A stretch of 23,062 nt of DNA from a phage. Both the position numbers and the translations under genes were made by a program. Under the pieces are notes generated by a model. That model was not told the origin of the DNA, searched no databases, and worked only from the letters and a program-made list of their open reading frames with translations. How positions within the stretch are numbered: the first letter of the stretch is position 1; each line of letters begins with the position of its first letter. Positions 4,555 through 18,903 of the stretch are shown one piece after another. Location of the stretch: assembly GCA_011967385.1 (NCBI GenBank), contig GCA_011967385.1_4516.2; one strand, given 5' to 3'.

Positions 4555-5082
4555 TTATGCGTGAACCGTCTTTAAACGTTCTTCAAATTTCCGAAGAGTA
4601 CTAATACGTTCTGCTTTCTGTTTTGTGTAGTTTGCAATACGTTCTGAAGTGAGAGCGTATCGTTCGTTTACTGTTTCTTTCATGAAGTCAGGGATTTCAC
4701 GAGAAGCTTTAATTTCATCAAACTTATCGAGTACTGCCTGGTCTTCAGCAATTAAATTTTCGTACATCTCGATATCTTTCTTGATGAAGTCGATATCTTC
4801 CTGGGTTACTTTGGATAAACGAGATGCTTTATCCTTTTTGTACTGCTCGTTAGTTTCACGAGACCAGAATAATGTACGTTTTTTGTTAGTGTTTTTGTAG
4901 ACTTCCACAATTCCAACTGAATCGATGATAACAATCCAATTCCAGCGAGATTTGAAAATCTGACCTCCGTCCACGGTAATCTCGTTACCATAAGCAACGT
5001 CATTAAAGAACTTGCTTTGTGCTTCAGATTTAAATTTACCGTCGTTATAATTTACCAGGTTGAAAATATCTTTAGCGTTCAT
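4555..5082 (-). CDS. Hypothetical protein, 175 aa
   Basis: ATG at 5082 preceded by GGAGG; early promoter at 5110-5138. Confidence 0.65.
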   Translation of the reverse strand: MNAKDIFNLVNYNDGKFKSEAQSKFFNDVAYGNEITVDGGQIFKSRWNWIVIIDSVGIVEVYKNTNKKRTLFWSRETNEQYKKDKASRLSKVTQEDIDFIKKDIEMYENLIAEDQAVLDKFDEIKASREIPDFMKETVNERYALTSERIANYTKQKAERISTLRKFEERLKTVHA

Positions 5083-5109
5083 GTTTTACCTCCAGTAGTT
5101 GATAGGTCT

Positions 5110-5138
5110 ATAATAACATAACCATAGACCTTGTAAAC
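5110..5138 (-). promoter_or_regulatory. Sigma70-type early promoter (GTTTAC-N17-TATTAT)
   Basis: Upstream of the ATG at 5082. The spacer contains an 8-bp perfect inverted repeat AGGTCTAT/ATAGACCT (5104-5131). Confidence 0.5.
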
Positions 5139-5140
5139 AA

Positions 5141-5416
5141 CTAAAAGAAACTTTTTTCGGTATTTTTTCCACTGAACCAAACAGACTTCGGGATTTTTTG
5201 TAATTTTTCAGATTTAAGTTTCTCTTCCTGTTCTTTCTTATACGCATCCTTGTCGTACTGGAGCATCTCTATGGCATTCTTTTGCAAATGATCTAAGGTA
5301 ATTAAGGCTTTAGTTTTTCCTTTCAAGGAAGAGTCCTGGCGAACCTCCTCGCTATATTGTTCTGTTGCACTAATCATACGATGGGCATATAATTCACGAC
5401 TGGCTTGGATATTCAT
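5141..5416 (-). CDS. Hypothetical protein, 91 aa
   Basis: ATG at 5416 with SD GAGGA inside the 3' end of the upstream ATPase gene. Confidence 0.55.
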   Translation of the reverse strand: MNIQASRELYAHRMISATEQYSEEVRQDSSLKGKTKALITLDHLQKNAIEMLQYDKDAYKKEQEEKLKSEKLQKIPKSVWFSGKNTEKSFF

Positions 5417-5423
5417 AATTTCC

Positions 5424-6404
5424 TCATTTCAGTAAAGTTACTTCGGAGATTTCCTCCCAACCATCTTTATCAGTTGAAATAAAATCTGCTACATAAAGAG
5501 CCGTACGTAATGATACATTGCGAAGACGAGATATGTTAGCCTTCATCCAGGACAATGCTTTGTACGTTTCTGCATCCGTCAGGCCACGTTTCTGCATCAT
5601 GTCAGTAGATAATATTACATCTTCAACTCGGACCATAATCTCTTCATTAGAGTGTACTCCAAGGTCCAAATACACTGAACGAGATACTAAAGCTTGAAGG
5701 TGTGGAGCAAGTTTCGAACCGCGTTCTAACTCTTTATCGATATCAACGTTTGTAATGAAAACGATAGTACCTTCAAACTCAAATTCTTTATCGATACCCT
5801 TATCATCAAGATAAGATGATGCAGTGCTCCAGCAAACTTTGCGTTTATCGCCAGTATCTAATGCGGCTTTAAGAAGGTTCAAGATGTCCATATCTGAGAA
5901 TACATCAACGTCATCGATTAAGAGAACGCTGTCTGCATCACGGTTGAGCCAAAGTTGTTCGTAAAGGCCAATACCAGAGATTTTGCCATTAATGCTTTTG
6001 TATTTGATGAAACCATTATCATTAGCATTATTAAGCGCTTTATCCAGAGAATACGTCTTACCAATACCTGCTGCACCTGAAATAATGAGTGAACGAATTT
6101 TGCCATCGATAATGCCATTCGTCATCATGTTCATTACTTTAAAGCGTTTGTTGATACGAGTTTTCATATCTTCAGCGTTTTCAACAACTGCAACTGGTGA
6201 TGTCTCAACTCCTTCCATTACGATGTCTGATTTGAAGACCCATACTCCACGTTCAGAACCATCAATCATAACGAAAATTTTACCGTCACCTAAGTGGGAA
6301 CATTCAGGATTAAGCTTTGCCGGGAACCATGTCTTTGTGGCAACATAAGAACCAGAGATTTCGTTATTACGATAGATACCTTTTTTGATTTGAACGTTGA
6401 ACAT
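5424..6404 (-). CDS. P-loop NTPase, AAA+-like, with a ~110 aa N-terminal extra domain
   Basis: Walker A LIISGAAGIGKTYS, Walker B VLLIDDVD, sensor-1-like IVFITN. The track start at 6416 is TTG; the ATG at 6404 has SD GGAG. Early promoter at 6444-6472. Confidence 0.75.
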   Translation of the reverse strand: MFNVQIKKGIYRNNEISGSYVATKTWFPAKLNPECSHLGDGKIFVMIDGSERGVWVFKSDIVMEGVETSPVAVVENAEDMKTRINKRFKVMNMMTNGIIDGKIRSLIISGAAGIGKTYSLDKALNNANDNGFIKYKSINGKISGIGLYEQLWLNRDADSVLLIDDVDVFSDMDILNLLKAALDTGDKRKVCWSTASSYLDDKGIDKEFEFEGTIVFITNVDIDKELERGSKLAPHLQALVSRSVYLDLGVHSNEEIMVRVEDVILSTDMMQKRGLTDAETYKALSWMKANISRLRNVSLRTALYVADFISTDKDGWEEISEVTLLK

Positions 6405-14873: not shown

Positions 14874-15182
14874 TCAATTAGAAAATAAATTTATCCAAGT
14901 TTTTTCTTTAATCAAAAATGGGTCGGAATTAAACGCCATTAAACTTTGAGTGATTAATCCCTTAAATGGTCCATCAATAAATTCCATTTTGAAATGTGGA
15001 ATACTAGTCATCAGTCGTGCATTAGGAGCAGTACAAAGAACCTGCTGCCCTGCGAACGGACCTTTAGTCAAACGATATCGTTTAGGTTTAAAATGGTAAA
15101 TCTCGTAATTTTCTACAAGGGCCCTTTTATTGCATACTGGGCTGTTATAACAATATTCAAAAACTTCAATAGTGGTCATCAT
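14874..15182 (-). CDS. Hypothetical protein, 102 aa (vs.7 position)
   Basis: ATG at 15182 in an ATGA overlap with the upstream stop. Confidence 0.55.
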   Translation of the reverse strand: MMTTIEVFEYCYNSPVCNKRALVENYEIYHFKPKRYRLTKGPFAGQQVLCTAPNARLMTSIPHFKMEFIDGPFKGLITQSLMAFNSDPFLIKEKTWINLFSN

Positions 15183-15718
15183 TGCATTCCAATCACAAAA
15201 AATTGAGGACGAGCATTACCGCCGATGCAATATTTGCTTTTGCAACAGTGTTGGACTGTTTTAATATGGATGTCGTAAATCTTATCCATATCAGGAGCTT
15301 TAATAGGCTCGTCAATTATATACAGAATACGAGAAAGCGTTAATCCACGGAATTTATGTCCTTCATTGCCAATAAAACTACGGACAGAATCAGTAAATAA
15401 ACGGAATCGAATATCATCGCTAGAATAACGAGAAAATTCTTTTTTAATGTTGCCAACAGAAATTTTAGCATAAGCTGAAGTATTAGAAAGAACAATAACT
15501 GTTCCACCATCATACAGCCAATTAGCAGCAAAGTTAGTCACAGCAATTGATTTACCTGATTGTCGGCCGCCGTCTAAACGAAGTGTGCAGTATTCTTTGA
15601 GCAAGACTTCAAATGGTGGGGTATAACCGTTCTTACAAATTTCTTCTACTCTAGCATCAGAATGGTGTGTAAAAGCATTCATCAGGGATAGATAAGGTCC
15701 AGTTAAAAATGTTCTCAT
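15179..15718 (-). CDS. Small P-loop protein, 179 aa (vs.8 position)
   Basis: Walker-A-like GGRQSGKS and a Walker-B-like hydrophobic stretch ending IIDE. Weak SD. Lies below a GC-rich spacer. Confidence 0.6.
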   Translation of the reverse strand: MRTFLTGPYLSLMNAFTHHSDARVEEICKNGYTPPFEVLLKEYCTLRLDGGRQSGKSIAVTNFAANWLYDGGTVIVLSNTSAYAKISVGNIKKEFSRYSSDDIRFRLFTDSVRSFIGNEGHKFRGLTLSRILYIIDEPIKAPDMDKIYDIHIKTVQHCCKSKYCIGGNARPQFFVIGMQ

Positions 15719-15891
15719 TTAGTTTCTCTTAAGGTTGGGGCCATTCCGTGGCACATGTTAGGTCCTTCGACTCGCTATGTAAACCCATTACCGCGCTTGG
15801 GCTCGACCTTATTACAGGTTGGAAAAGGTACATCACTCAGAGGACTCGACGTTCATGAGGAGAGGTTGCGCTTCCCTTTATTAGGCAAGAA

Positions 15892-16221
15892 TTATACTCT
15901 AGGCTTTTGAGCTTGTTTGGTATTGGATTCCCACGCTGCTTTGGTAATTTTGTTAGCGGCATAGCCAAAGGCATTAGATAGAACACCTTTAGAGTTGAAT
16001 ACATCCAATCCAATAAGTACACCTGCTGCGTTAAATTTAGGAGCAAAGTACGCATTAGTTTTAGAAAGAGCTTTTTTCAATTCAGGGTCTTGAACCAAGC
16101 CATCAAAAACGCCTTTACCATTTACTTTATATGTTACTTTGGGATTTTTGCCTTCTTCGATAGCAGCTTTCTGTTCCGCAGATAATGTAACTTCAGTGAT
16201 AAACTCTTGATATGTTTTCAT
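15892..16221 (-). CDS. Internal-protein-like head protein with capsid targeting sequence (109 aa)
   Basis: N-terminus MKTYQEFITEV matches the T4 IP capsid-targeting consensus (MKTYQEFIAEA). SD AAGGA. Basic, Lys-rich body. Confidence 0.7.
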   Translation of the reverse strand: MKTYQEFITEVTLSAEQKAAIEEGKNPKVTYKVNGKGVFDGLVQDPELKKALSKTNAYFAPKFNAAGVLIGLDVFNSKGVLSNAFGYAANKITKAAWESNTKQAQKPRV

Positions 16222-16262
16222 ATGTTTCCTTTAAATGTAAATAGGCCTAAGTATAGGCCTTA

Positions 16263-16841
16263 TTAATTACCACGGGCTGCATTAGCAACGGCGTAAGCGT
16301 ACTGAACATTAGCGTCTTTAAACGTACCTTTAGAGGTATCTATTTCTGCCTTAAAGCCGCCTTTAGCCATAACATCGGCAAATTCTTTACGGAAAGCCAT
16401 TGCGTCAAGACCTTTCCATGATGATTTATGCTTGGCAAATTCAAGACCAGCGTAGTTGACAGCTTTAGCCAATTTATTATCAATGACCCATTTACCTGCT
16501 TTAGGCACAAACTTCGGGCCTTTTTGTTTAGAGAACAGTTTTAAATTCCAGCGACGAAGGTCACTGTCGGCTTTAACAAAAGCTGCGTCTAAGTTACTAG
16601 CAACAACATCTTCAATATGAGCAAATTTAAGACCATCAACTTCAATATTTAGATCGTTACGCCAGCGAAGTCCTTCCCAAGCGAAGGCTTTAAAGTCGGA
16701 AGCCTTTGTAGCTAAGTACCGTTCAATAGGAGCAGTTTTAGGGTCAAAGCCGTTTCCGCCACGATAATTCCACTCGTCCTTATTAATGCCTTGGACTTTT
16801 CCTGCAAAGGCCTCGGCGATAAATTCTTTATATGTTTTCAT
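16263..16841 (-). CDS. Internal-protein-like head protein with capsid targeting sequence (192 aa; IPIII-sized)
   Basis: N-terminus MKTYKEFIAEA. Length is close to T4 IPIII (~194 aa) but homology is unconfirmed. Own promoter at 16872-16901. Confidence 0.7.
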   Translation of the reverse strand: MKTYKEFIAEAFAGKVQGINKDEWNYRGGNGFDPKTAPIERYLATKASDFKAFAWEGLRWRNDLNIEVDGLKFAHIEDVVASNLDAAFVKADSDLRRWNLKLFSKQKGPKFVPKAGKWVIDNKLAKAVNYAGLEFAKHKSSWKGLDAMAFRKEFADVMAKGGFKAEIDTSKGTFKDANVQYAYAVANAARGN

Positions 16842-16871
16842 TTTTGTTTCCTTGTTTGTTTTGATAGAGTA

Positions 16872-16901
16872 ATTATACCATATTAATACTTAAGCGTAAA
16901 C
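16872..16901 (-). promoter_or_regulatory. Sigma70-type early promoter (GTTTAC-N18-TATAAT)
   Basis: Upstream of the 192-aa IP-like gene. Confidence 0.5.
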
Positions 16902-16904
16902 AAT

Positions 16905-17165
16905 TTAAGCTTTACCGCCAGAAATAATTCCGAAGTTGTTAAAATCGTATCCAATATCATCAGCATCTACTTTAGGACTTGCTACAACATGAACAATTTC
17001 ACGACGTTTTGCATAGGTGTTGATTTCTTTACCATCGCCACCTAAGAAAGAATACCCATTACGTTTTAATGAGCCAAAGTCTTCGGCATCACCAACGAAA
17101 GCTTTAACTTTAAATTTGGGGTCTTTGGCATCTGCTTCAGTGATAAATTCTTGATACATTTTCAT
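16905..17165 (-). CDS. Internal-protein-like head protein with capsid targeting sequence (86 aa)
   Basis: N-terminus MKMYQEFITEA. Lies 6 nt downstream of the denV stop. Confidence 0.65.
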   Translation of the reverse strand: MKMYQEFITEADAKDPKFKVKAFVGDAEDFGSLKRNGYSFLGGDGKEINTYAKRREIVHVVASPKVDADDIGYDFNNFGIISGGKA

Positions 17166-17171
17166 TTTTCC

Positions 17172-17585
17172 TTAGTAAATTGATTTACCATAGTATTTGT
17201 ACCAAGTCGGACGTTGAGCAATTTTTTCATCTAAACGTGCTTGACTTATCGCAATGGACGCTTCGGACGGGACATAATTATTACGAAATTCTACAGGAAT
17301 GTCGGAAATATCCTGGACTGTCGTGTCCTTGATTTTGAAACCACGTTTCAAGCATTCAGTGATTAGCTCGATTTGACGTAAACGTAAAAATTCGAGTTTG
17401 TCGTAAAAGAATGTTACGTGACCCGTGCCTAAGATAAATGTTGGAGAGATTTTAAAATCCTTTACACGTTTACCATTTTGAACATGTTTACGGACTGCAC
17501 CAAATACGCGTGGTAATTCACGATACTCAGCCATAAGATGTTGGTCGGTCAGTTCAGAAACAAGTGTTAAATTGATACGAGTCAT
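17172..17585 (-). CDS. denV: Endonuclease V (pyrimidine-dimer DNA glycosylase/AP lyase)
   Basis: [35 protein letters not shown]...[19 protein letters not shown]...[11 protein letters not shown] is near-identical to T4 DenV as I recall it. The track start at 17597 is TTG; the ATG at 17585 has SD GGAGGA. Confidence 0.93.
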
Positions 17586-17612
17586 AATTTCCTCCAAGTA
17601 GTTGATAGATGT

Positions 17613-17641
17613 ATAGTATCAAAACCCTTGGAGGAAGTAAA
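17613..17641 (-). promoter_or_regulatory. Sigma70-type early promoter (GTTTAC-N17-TACTAT)
   Basis: Upstream of denV. The spacer contains the inverted repeat TTGATA...TATCAA (17606-17626). Confidence 0.5.
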
Positions 17642-17643
17642 CA

Positions 17644-17925
17644 CTATTTTTCTGAAGCGCCTGAAATATATTTTTCAAGACGTTGTTTCATCAGCGAGCC
17701 GTTCTTAGCGATTTCTTCCGGTTTATCGCACATACGCAACAGTGCTTCAAGCTTAACGATATCGCTGGTACGTTCAAATTTGCGAGTATCTATCTTACTG
17801 GCAAGTTCAGAAATACGTGCTAATAGACTTTCAGCTTCGACCAAAGCTGCACCTAGCTTAGTTGCAAATGTGTCAGTGGCTTCGTTAAGAATAGATTCTG
17901 ATAAAAATTCACTATATGTTTTCAT
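17644..17925 (-). CDS. Internal-protein-like head protein with capsid targeting sequence (93 aa)
   Basis: N-terminus [10 protein letters not shown]. The track start at 17940 is TTG; the ATG at 17925 is in an ATGA overlap with the lysozyme stop. Confidence 0.7.
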
Positions 17926-18410
17926 ATATACGCTTTCCAAGTTCCTGTTTTAAATGTTGAGATTACGCGTTTCGCGCGATTAGGTGTCTGACGATACCAT
18001 TTAGATTGGGCTAGATTTACTGCCGCTTCGTCCCAACGTTTCTGTTGAAGCATACGAAGAGAATTAGTAAAACCGGCGACGCCTGCTACACCCATTTGGA
18101 AGACCATATTGACTAATGCACATCGACGAACTGCATCTAAAGAATCATACACTGGTTTAAGTTTAGCATTACCCAAGATTCCGCGAACGGCTTTATCAAC
18201 ATCTTCATTAAATAGCTTTTCAGCCTCATCAAGGGTAATTGTACCGTTGCATTTACGACCGATCATTCTATCAAGTTCAGCTTTAGCTACAGCTAAAGAC
18301 GGGTTCTTTGTTACTAAATGGCCTATGCCAATCGTCCAAAAGCCTTCAGTGTCTTTGTATAAAGACAGTCTAAGACCTTCGTCATTACGAAGCATTTCAA
18401 ATATATTCAT
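17922..18410 (-). CDS. e: Endolysin, T4-type lysozyme (muramidase)
   Basis: [32 protein letters not shown]...[16 protein letters not shown]...[40 protein letters not shown] matches T4 lysozyme with catalytic E11/D20/T26 equivalents. The track start at 18422 is GTG; the ATG at 18410 has SD GGGAGG. Confidence 0.95.
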
Positions 18411-18438
18411 AATACCTCCCACGTTTATAGGAGGTATT
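18411..18438 (-). promoter_or_regulatory. RNA hairpin sequestering the lysozyme (e) Shine-Dalgarno
   Basis: 9-bp perfect inverted repeat AATACCTCC/GGAGGTATT with a 10-nt loop. In the minus RNA the 3' arm GGAGGUAUU is the SD, 4 nt before the AUG. The loop carries TATAAAC, a near late-promoter motif. Confidence 0.6.
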
Positions 18439-18444
18439 TATTAC

Positions 18445-18903
18445 TTATAGGATGGTAGTGAGCACCTTATATAATGATTTGCCCATCACATATTCCCATT
18501 GAGAAGGTTTAATTAAAGCGAATGCATCAAATTCAGGAATCTGTCGTCCGTCCGGGAATGTATGATAGGAATTACAAACACTGTTTCTGAATTGCTCGTG
18601 CTCTACAGGGATTGTATATTGGAATAGATGAATATTCTTATTGTCTGAGTAATGATGTTCGCCTAGGTCTTTCAGGAAGGCAGGGTCATATTGTGTAAAC
18701 CCAGTTTCTTCTTCGCATTCGCGAATAGCGGCTTCAATAGGAGATTCGCCAGGTTCGACACGGCCTTTAGGAATATCCCACCGATGAGCTAAAGAACCTT
18801 TAGGACGAGAACCAGTTACACGGCCCATGAATAATTCTTTATCTTCGGTAAGGAAAATAATACCGGCTGATAGTTCTTTCACTTTATTTTTCTTACTCAT
18901 CAT
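18445..18903 (-). CDS. nudE: Nudix hydrolase (T4 NudE/e.1-like)
   Basis: Nudix box GRVEPGESPIEAAIRECEEETG (Gx5Ex7REUxEExGU). Position immediately upstream of e, as in T4. Confidence 0.85.
   Translation of the reverse strand: MMSKKNKVKELSAGIIFLTEDKELFMGRVTGSRPKGSLAHRWDIPKGRVEPGESPIEAAIRECEEETGFTQYDPAFLKDLGEHHYSDNKNIHLFQYTIPVEHEQFRNSVCNSYHTFPDGRQIPEFDAFALIKPSQWEYVMGKSLYKVLTTIL

Follow-up and report, generated by a model that had tools for sequence, protein, structure and literature searches.

Why would a T-even phage place one and the same capsid-targeting leader in front of four proteins that share no other similarity, and how unusual is the way in which their genes are set around denV? The question is raised by contig GCA_011967385.1_4516.2 (NCBI GenBank assembly GCA_011967385.1), a stretch of phage DNA of 23,062 nucleotides, henceforth the window, in which four small open reading frames (ORFs) open with the leader of the T4 internal proteins (IPs); we call them ipD, ipC, ipB and ipA, in their order of transcription. 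The window belongs to a Mosigvirus, that is, an RB69-like T-even phage: the 2.85-kb region under study matches 884 phage records, 65 of which span at least 80% of it, and its best matches are to Mosigvirus, with ESh15 (97.6%) in first place followed by phiC120 and Av-05 (96.9% each). In our analysis it is highly probable that the four ORFs form an RB69-like version of the IP locus e-denV-vs.8, and that their products would be targeted to the capsid, packaged and injected, some of them acting against host defences.

The leader itself carries most of the evidence. A six-frame scan of all 23,062 bases with the motif MK.[YF].EF returned exactly four matches, which are the four ORFs (leader starts at 17925, 17165, 16841 and 16221), just as the original prediction had maintained; for ipD the listed ORF begins at an upstream TTG, and the leader ATG is the one at 17925. 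Tyr4, Phe7, Ile or Leu8 and Glu10 are present in all four leaders, the residues 8-10 of which read ITE, IAE, ITE and LSE, in agreement with the I/L-x-E cleavage motif of gp21, while Asp10 occurs in none. At the DNA level, the leader starts constitute a family of direct repeats (D1) of four copies, 41 nucleotides long and 71-73% identical, and their consensus finds three sites with at most three mismatches in the window against none in 100 shuffles. Given the motif scan, the repeat family and the shuffle control, the observation of four leaders is not due to chance. In IPIII, packaging needs no more than the first 10 residues, of which those at positions 4 and 7 govern targeting and those at 8 and 10 cleavage, which Asp10 blocks (PMC9026906); the same review attributes the demonstration of these targeting and processing residues to Mullaney & Black.

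Leaders of this kind vary among the relatives. In RB69, the leader of ORF127c, the copy of ipD (locus L004, 3423-3704), has degenerated to MKTYMNFYQN in a stretch that reads MKTYMNFYQNLSLNE and resembles a local double frameshift, and that of ORF123c, the copy of ipA (L004, 1950-2279), has Ala for Glu at position 10, a substitution that may explain why ORF123c has never been called an internal protein. Av-05 possesses a fifth leader-like ORF of 87 residues (MKTFNEFISES...), about 2 kb upstream of nudE (L006, 652-915), which has no counterpart in the window.

T4-like phages have two polymorphic ip loci, e-denV-vs.8 and 57B-tRNA.4, and all four leader ORFs sit in the former, between e and vs.8. 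The genes in this cassette part of the window are all on the minus strand and follow one another in the order nudE, e, ipD, denV, ipC, ipB, ipA, a gap of 173 nucleotides, the vs.8 homolog, vs.7 and vs.6/grcA. One leader ORF (ipD) thus lies on the e side of denV and three (ipC, ipB and ipA) on the other, a distribution that had been correctly read from the sequence and that differs from the T4 order, e-ipIII-ipII-denV-vs.8. The coordinates of the features are collected in table 1.

Table 1. Genes and other features of the e-denV-vs.8 interval and its flanks in the window.
Feature	Position	Strand	Description
ipD	17644..17925	minus	93 residues; Ip5-like (RB69ORF127c family); phrog_3499 'internal head protein', E=1.2e-46
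ipC	16905..17165	minus	86 residues; RB69ORF125c / VR7ORF127c family, without Ip number; leader MKMYQEFITE; phrog_2667 'internal head protein', E=1.7e-20
ipB	16263..16841	minus	192 residues; IPIII ortholog; leader MKTYKEFIAE; 91.7% identity to T4 IPIII over 192 residues, E=3e-132; phrog_5341, E=1e-117
ipA	15892..16221	minus	109 residues; RB69ORF123c family; leader MKTYQEFITE; phrog_3966 'unknown function', E=2.5e-33
Leader repeat copies	16192..16232 (ipA); 16812-16852, 17136-17176, 17896-17936 (sister copies)	minus	ribosome-binding site and first 10 codons
nudE	18903-18445	minus	
e	17922..18410	minus	endolysin; conserved left-hand flank of the cassette
denV	17172..17585	minus	endonuclease V, pyrimidine-dimer glycosylase; conserved mid-cassette anchor; Pfam PF03013 Pyr_excise, E=5e-14; phrog_1183, E=3e-62
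vs.8 homolog	15179..15718	minus	179 residues; conserved right-hand flank; 88% identity to T4 Vs.8 residues 41-219; phrog_1488
Early promoter of ipB	16872..16900	minus	T4 early-type, (G)TTTACG-N17-TATAAT, the -10 preceded by TG; just 5' of ipB
Stem-loop	16243..16260	minus	AGGCCT-ATACTT-AGGCCT, then ATTTACATTT; between ipB and ipA
Promoter-like motif of denV	17598..17645	minus	GTTTAC...TACTAT upstream of denV (GTTTAC at 17642)
Spacer element	15720..15888	minus	conserved, single-copy candidate structured RNA; between ipA and vs.8

Beyond the leader, the four proteins are a heterogeneous group. The original prediction had recognised none of their bodies, which is contradicted for ipB and ipD but holds for ipC and ipA, the members of uncharacterised families. 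BLASTP comparison with the T4 IPs, one of the checks proposed along with that prediction, aligns IPIII over its full length with ipB only; ipA, ipC and ipD match IPIII only in the leader, and their alignments with IPI or IPII cover just the first 10-25 residues. By the same method, the four bodies show no similarity to each other or to T4 IPI and IPII. RefSeq annotates three of the four proteins as internal head or virion proteins, and the same proportion falls in PHROG families named 'internal head protein'. The ipD protein is 47.6% identical to Ip5 of T2 and RB32 over its residues 1-84 (90% of its length, E ~1e-15), a relationship anticipated by the RB32 record, which already lists RB69ORF127c as similar to Ip5; it has homologs in 497 phage records, the best being 100% identical, and carries further protease-type sites at LNE15, LVE30 and ISE40. 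For ipC, homologs occur in 217 phage records (best identity 96.5%; coverage of at least 80% in 216 of them), although truncations or frameshifts affect several of its homologs in databases (P0007, P0009 and P0011).

The least familiar of the four is ipA, which has a second protease-type site at IEE23 and matches 91 phage records, every one of them annotated as hypothetical, RB69ORF123c included; apparently, it has never been annotated as an internal protein before. Its only distant relative is a protein of 119 residues from the Dhakavirus WG01, 37% identical, encoded directly after denV and beginning with the leader MKTYQQFITES. Only two clusters at 50% identity contain ipA-like proteins among 1.84e9 representatives, and an exhaustive search with the ipA body found its own and the WG01-like cluster plus long repetitive proteins, which we judged to be spurious homologs. 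Deep searches likewise recovered close relatives only (2 for ipA, 10 for ipC and 5 for ipD). None of the four bodies matched Pfam, and sequence searches of the PDB gave chance matches (E>=0.014). Structure prediction, also proposed at the outset, was of little help: AlphaFold2 models reached a predicted local distance difference test (pLDDT) score of 59.7 for ipA (single sequence) and of 61.8 for ipC (alignment of 11 sequences), and a Foldseek search of the PDB with the latter, low-confidence model had no match at E<=0.001, leaving no usable fold match for ipC.

What would such proteins do? By analogy with T4 biology, the leader would dock each of them into the scaffolding core of the prohead and the gp21 prohead protease would cut after Glu10, leaving mature proteins of about 8-20 kDa that would be retained in the head and injected along with the DNA. 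Both this protease and the gp22 core are presumably encoded by the phage, as expected in a Mosigvirus, the head-gene region being outside the 23-kb window. Once in the cytoplasm, some of the proteins would act as stoichiometric inhibitors of DNA-targeting, first-line defences, chiefly of modification-dependent (type IV) nucleases. T4 IPI is known to inhibit GmrS/GmrD. To our knowledge, only four internal proteins have assigned targets or phenotypes, and three of these assignments date from 2022 or later. IpII inhibits fused GmrSD/BrxU (bioRxiv 10.1101/2023.04.06.535777); T4 IPIII is packaged, is needed on E. coli ECOR17 and remains active when expressed from a plasmid in leaderless form (PMC9391042); and the leader-bearing Bas37_0260 inhibits McrBC (bioRxiv 10.1101/2025.11.20.689424). 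An injected anti-defence role is at present the working model for the class and is plausible for the four proteins of the window. DNA of RB69 type carries arabinosyl-hydroxymethylcytosine (ara-hmC; PMC6024577, as cited in PMC9026906), so that a different set of modification-dependent nucleases may be the target. Internal proteins enter with the DNA before phage genes are expressed, and hence would be the first counter of the phage to restriction; ipA, ipC and ipD, as conserved, intact and uncharacterised members of the family from an ara-hmC lineage, are candidates against type IV or other DNA-targeting defences.

Several points weigh against this reading and have to be considered together. 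Virion proteomics of these Mosigvirus IPs was not found in the searchable literature, and we infer both packaging and cleavage. In the RB69 reference, the leaders of both ipD and ipA are degenerate, as described above. No body resembles IPI, IPII or any known inhibitor in sequence or, for ipC, in the fold of its low-confidence model. The canonical late promoter, TATAAATA, has no exact match between 15000 and 19200, so that ipC, ipB and ipA could be expressed late only by read-through or from variant promoters. Finally, ipA and ipB are basic proteins, a property that fits an older structural or DNA-associated role too, and the elevated rate of amino acid change in ipC, along with its truncated copies elsewhere, may reflect decay rather than an arms race.

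The last two points correspond to alternative explanations. Under the first, the packaged proteins would be mainly structural or physical in function, neutralizing charge, condensing DNA or helping its ejection, instead of being specific effectors against defences; the basic proteins IPII and IPIII were classically seen in this way. The isoelectric points of mature ipA and ipB (9.7 and 9.6) are indeed like those of T4 IPII and IPIII, and the strong conservation of ipA, ipB and ipD within the genus, with ratios of nonsynonymous to synonymous substitution (dN/dS) around 0, is unlike the signature of an arms race. However, ipC and ipD are close to neutral (6.8 and 6.3), IP families are freely gained and lost among close relatives, which does not suit a required structural part, and IPIII made in the host without its leader rescues infection of ECOR17 (PMC9391042). 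Moreover, every IP with an assigned function so far inhibits a restriction system. We consequently regard a mainly structural role as unlikely, and retain that of injected proteins with some anti-defence effectors among them.

The second alternative concerns the selection acting on the genes, which we estimated from comparisons with Av-05 and phiC120 at a synonymous divergence (dS) of 0.12-0.18. Values of dN/dS are 0.00 for ipD (dS 0.16-0.18) and for ipA (dS 0.12), and 0.03-0.04 for ipB, to be compared with 0.03 for denV and 0.02 for e in the flanks; such strong purifying selection indicates that ipA, ipB and ipD are real functional genes. For ipC, dN/dS is 0.19-0.51 in five comparisons, its neighbours having values of 0.08 or less with the exception of vs.8 (0.18-0.35), and this may reflect either diversifying or relaxed selection. 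Could at least one of the ORFs, ipC above all, then be a decaying or non-functional remnant, the leader of which is kept only as a repeat for recombination? Besides its dN/dS, the truncated or frameshifted homologs and the best phage match of only 96.5%, compared with 100% for ipA and ipD, would favour such a fate. Conversely, the ORF is intact here and in the 216 of 217 matching records with extended coverage, its dN/dS does not reach 1, it keeps the residues for targeting and cleavage, and diversifying selection on the surface of an inhibitor would raise dN/dS equally. On balance, we give the remnant explanation a slightly lower probability than the structural one, and continue to consider ipC as a putative injected protein.

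As to the remaining alternative, a new rearrangement peculiar to this genome, the difference from the T4 order is outweighed by the identical order in phiC120 and Av-05, the 65 records spanning at least 80% of the region and the presence of IP genes downstream of denV in many genera, which refute it and reduce its probability practically to nil.

In comparative terms, the locus is variable in a well-defined way. We fetched 80 loci around denV homologs and mapped leader ORFs in those with vs.8 as well, 34 in number. In these T4-like loci, the e-denV-vs.8 interval contains from one to four leader ORFs and at least 15 unrelated body families, in line with the hypervariability that had been noted for it; leader ORFs are placed on one side of denV or the other, or flank it, the last being common among T4-like phages, and combinations of the type ipII-denV-ipIII occur too. 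The term 'rearranged' of the original prediction is hence misleading if taken to mean unusual. Of the situations that it had named as contrary to its case, namely close orthology with IPII or IPIII and an arrangement found in reference genomes, we find the former for one protein out of four (ipB) and the latter for the locus as a whole. Among the relatives, RB69 has at the position of the window's IPIII a leader-bearing ORF of 90 residues, ORF124c, of the Ip10 family according to the annotation of VR7; Bas46 has ipC, an ORF of 104 residues and then IPIII, without ipA; a phiE142-like genome also is without ipA; and in the Dhakavirus WG01, denV is surrounded by five leader ORFs.

Pairwise BLASTN comparisons show where the cassettes are joined. 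With RB69, homology ends at 16230 and resumes at 16813; with the phiE142-like genome, it breaks at 15822 and 16230; with Bas46, at 15822, 16230 and 16813/16844. Position 16230 is just upstream of the ATG of ipA, 16813-16844 corresponds to the leader codons of ipB, and 15822 falls inside the conserved spacer element that follows ipA. From these positions, the exchanged unit consists of a body with its 3' intergenic stretch, between leader repeats. This agrees with the RB32 record, in which direct repeats of 43 bp flank Ip7/Ip9 and Ip5 is noted as 'replacing ipI' at the other ip locus, as well as with the modular shuffling via promoter/stem-loop (PeSL) motifs described in T4-type phages (PMC2839356; PMC4122927), for instance between T4 and PST, which show five IP differences (PMC4122927). 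What the window shows is a single allele of a site with two slots, the cassettes of which are shuffled combinatorially; the IP cassette is real but ordinary, a locus of known kind in a known configuration. Mechanistically, phages would swap cassettes with each other, and also from one ip locus to the other, through homologous recombination at the leader and promoter/stem-loop motifs.

Signals for expression are found along the cassette, with denV and ipB having one early promoter of GTTTAC type each. The promoter of ipB approximates the PeSL consensus of T4 and PST, TTTACW-N17-TAYWAT (PMC4122927), its -35 having G where the consensus has W. No obvious stem-loop adjoins this promoter (16900-16872), and the stem-loop between ipB and ipA (16260-16243) is followed by TTTACA but by no good -10; in sequence, the latter resembles a terminator, or else the stem-loop part of a PeSL. 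The GTTTAC promoter of denV overlaps the 5' arm of an inverted repeat, I3 (17580-17598 / 17627-17645, 79% complementary), in which CUUCCUCCAAG pairs with CUUGGAGGAA, the Shine-Dalgarno sequence of denV (GGAGG) in the 3' arm. Longer transcripts would consequently mask the ribosome-binding site of denV, and only those starting at the GTTTAC promoter would leave it free. A design with a masked ribosome-binding site is known for T4 e and soc. Upstream of e (18410-18450), a hairpin ACCUCC-UAUAAACGU-GGGAGGU extends over the ribosome-binding site of e, with a late-promoter-like TATAAAC in its loop, and resembles the classical arrangement of T4 e. The start codon of ipD and the stop codon of e share bases (ATGA), so that transcripts of e probably serve for the translation of ipD.

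The gap of 173 nucleotides between ipA and vs.8 (15719-15891) turned out to be of interest in its own right. The original prediction had described here an unusually GC-rich spacer of about 170 nucleotides; its location and size are right, but its GC content is only modestly raised, 0.45-0.49 versus about 0.35-0.40 in the flanks. We proposed eight helices for it by hand analysis and built a covariance model from them. The proposed fold comprises a 5' hairpin domain (H1-H3), a variable arm (H7), a core junction in which H6 closes an ACCU-GUAAUA-AGGU hairpin and a small CC/GG hairpin, and a 3' GCCA-AGGAA-UGGC hairpin just 5' of the ribosome-binding site of vs.8. The model matches once per genome in 39 T4-like loci with 77-199 bits (Tequatro-, Mosig-, Dhaka- and Gaprivervirus, among others), and has no match in the denV loci of jumbo phages. 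Near these matches, one locus (L029) has a weak, partial second match of 16.8 bits adjacent to vs.8, perhaps a duplicate of the 3' part of the element, and in L028-L030 (~5030-5610) a gene of the Ip7 family is inserted between the full RNA element and vs.8.

Covariation was evaluated on a model-guided alignment of 41 distinct sequences, which is by construction fitted to the model. Cells in standard pairs amount to 92.6%, against 85.2% in shuffled alignments; pairs changed on both sides are 13 against 7.4±1.2 (none of 500 shuffles reaches 13); and the covariation score is 0.201, against 0.077 when shuffled and 0.079 or less when the 3' partners are slid by 1-3 columns. On the same alignment, RNAalifold recovers helix 1, in which each of the five pairs is compensatory, the helix that closes the junction, with one additional pair (UA in 14 sequences, AU in 13, UG in 8 and CG in 5), the invariant ACCU-GUAAUA-AGGU hairpin and the 3' GCCA/UGGC hairpin. 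The frequency of G-U pairs supports the gene-sense strand. However, the structure appeared only after manual and covariance-model-guided alignment: the fold of the single sequence is no better than that of shuffles (z=+1.85), and RNAalifold on a plain MAFFT alignment yields almost no structure. Searches of Rfam 15 with the spacer gave no match at the gathering score, only chance-level ones at E<=10, ARAGORN detected no tRNA or tmRNA in it, and no report of an RNA at this site was found in the literature.

Might the conservation of the spacer be due to protein coding? T4 Vs.8 is annotated with 219 residues, 40 more at the N-terminus (MRDSRQPVIRSSPSAVMG...) than the ORF of the window, which starts with MRTFLTG and has 179 residues. 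Most relatives share this start, the frame upstream of it being broken in them as in the window. We considered the spacer as the coding N-terminus of vs.8 and rejected this possibility: in 30 loci, the core ACCTGTAATAAGGTCGAGCCCAAGYGCGGTAA falls in all three frames, with stops, and in the window the nucleotides of the T4 Vs.8 N-terminus are out of frame. The conservation is accordingly at the nucleotide level and non-coding, and the start of T4 Vs.8 has probably been annotated too far upstream, reading through a conserved non-coding element. In T4, the 40 N-terminal codons correspond to 2290-2413 of locus L002, and the element lies at about 64,800-64,950 of NC_000866. Vs.8 itself has a weak similarity to AAA domains and to the ATPase found at the N-terminus of large terminases (Pfam Terminase_6N, E=0.016; phrog_2, E=1e-5), which suggests that it could be a P-loop NTPase.

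A core of 38 nucleotides within the spacer recurs, with 95-97% identity, in the Vequintavirus (rV5-like) phages FV3 (NC_019517, 62,586-62,625) and HeinrichReichert, as well as in metagenomic contigs related to them. Here, the core is set in an intergenic region of about 345 nucleotides, unannotated and with a sigma-70-like promoter of its own, upstream of a tRNA cluster and an unrelated small gene. A downstream gene shared by the two phage groups, considered as a common reason for the core, was rejected, for it belongs to phrog_1488 in one and to phrog_3330 in the other; a host origin was also discarded, as neither 5,426 E. coli genomes nor 185,579 genomes representing bacterial and archaeal species contained a match. 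The rV5-type core is carried also by a sequence of 59.5 kb recorded as 'UNVERIFIED Campylobacter phage A116' (L110, MG065676.1) and classified under Vequintavirinae, which probably does not come from a Campylobacter phage but is coliphage-like. As to its function, the spacer could be a processed stable RNA, a leader bound by a protein, or a decoy. We see an even chance for a composite view in which the spacer would be a new, phage-specific structured RNA, present once per genome in essentially all the Tevenvirinae analysed, sharing its core, an invariant junction of two hairpins, with rV5-like phages and serving as a recombination anchor for the cassette, while ipA and ipC would be injected inhibitors of defences that attack ara-hmC DNA. 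This by-product of the analysis may outweigh the cassette itself, given a core common to two unrelated groups of coliphages that has no match in bacterial genomes or Rfam.

How does the locus compare with systems already described? The head proteins of phage P1 called Dar are also anti-restriction proteins packaged in the capsid and co-injected, but the proteins, the packaging signals and the phage family are all unrelated to those considered here. With PeSL cassettes (Arbiol 2010, PMC2839356; Comeau 2014, PMC4122927), the window shares an early-promoter motif and a stem-loop between cassette genes, as well as a gene content that differs among close relatives at recurrent junctions; its sharpest junctions, however, are the coding leader repeat and the RNA-like element, not the canonical unit of stem-loop plus promoter. 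Closer still are individual IPs. The ipB protein is the ortholog of T4 IPIII, alike in leader and size, with its gene downstream of denV instead of between e and ipII as in T4. The ipD protein has the same type of leader as Ip5 of T2, T6 and RB32, a polymorphic protein replacing ipI; Ip5 is encoded at the 57B-tRNA.4 (ipI) locus in Tequatrovirus, whereas ipD has e and denV as its neighbours and is probably coupled to e in translation. Finally, T4 IPI*, T4 IpII and Bas37_0260 have no sequence similarity to the four proteins beyond the leader, and the DNA context differs as well, with ara-hmC rather than glucosyl-hmC in this phage; yet they follow the same plan, a cleavable leader on a small, unrelated body encoded in a hypervariable ip locus.

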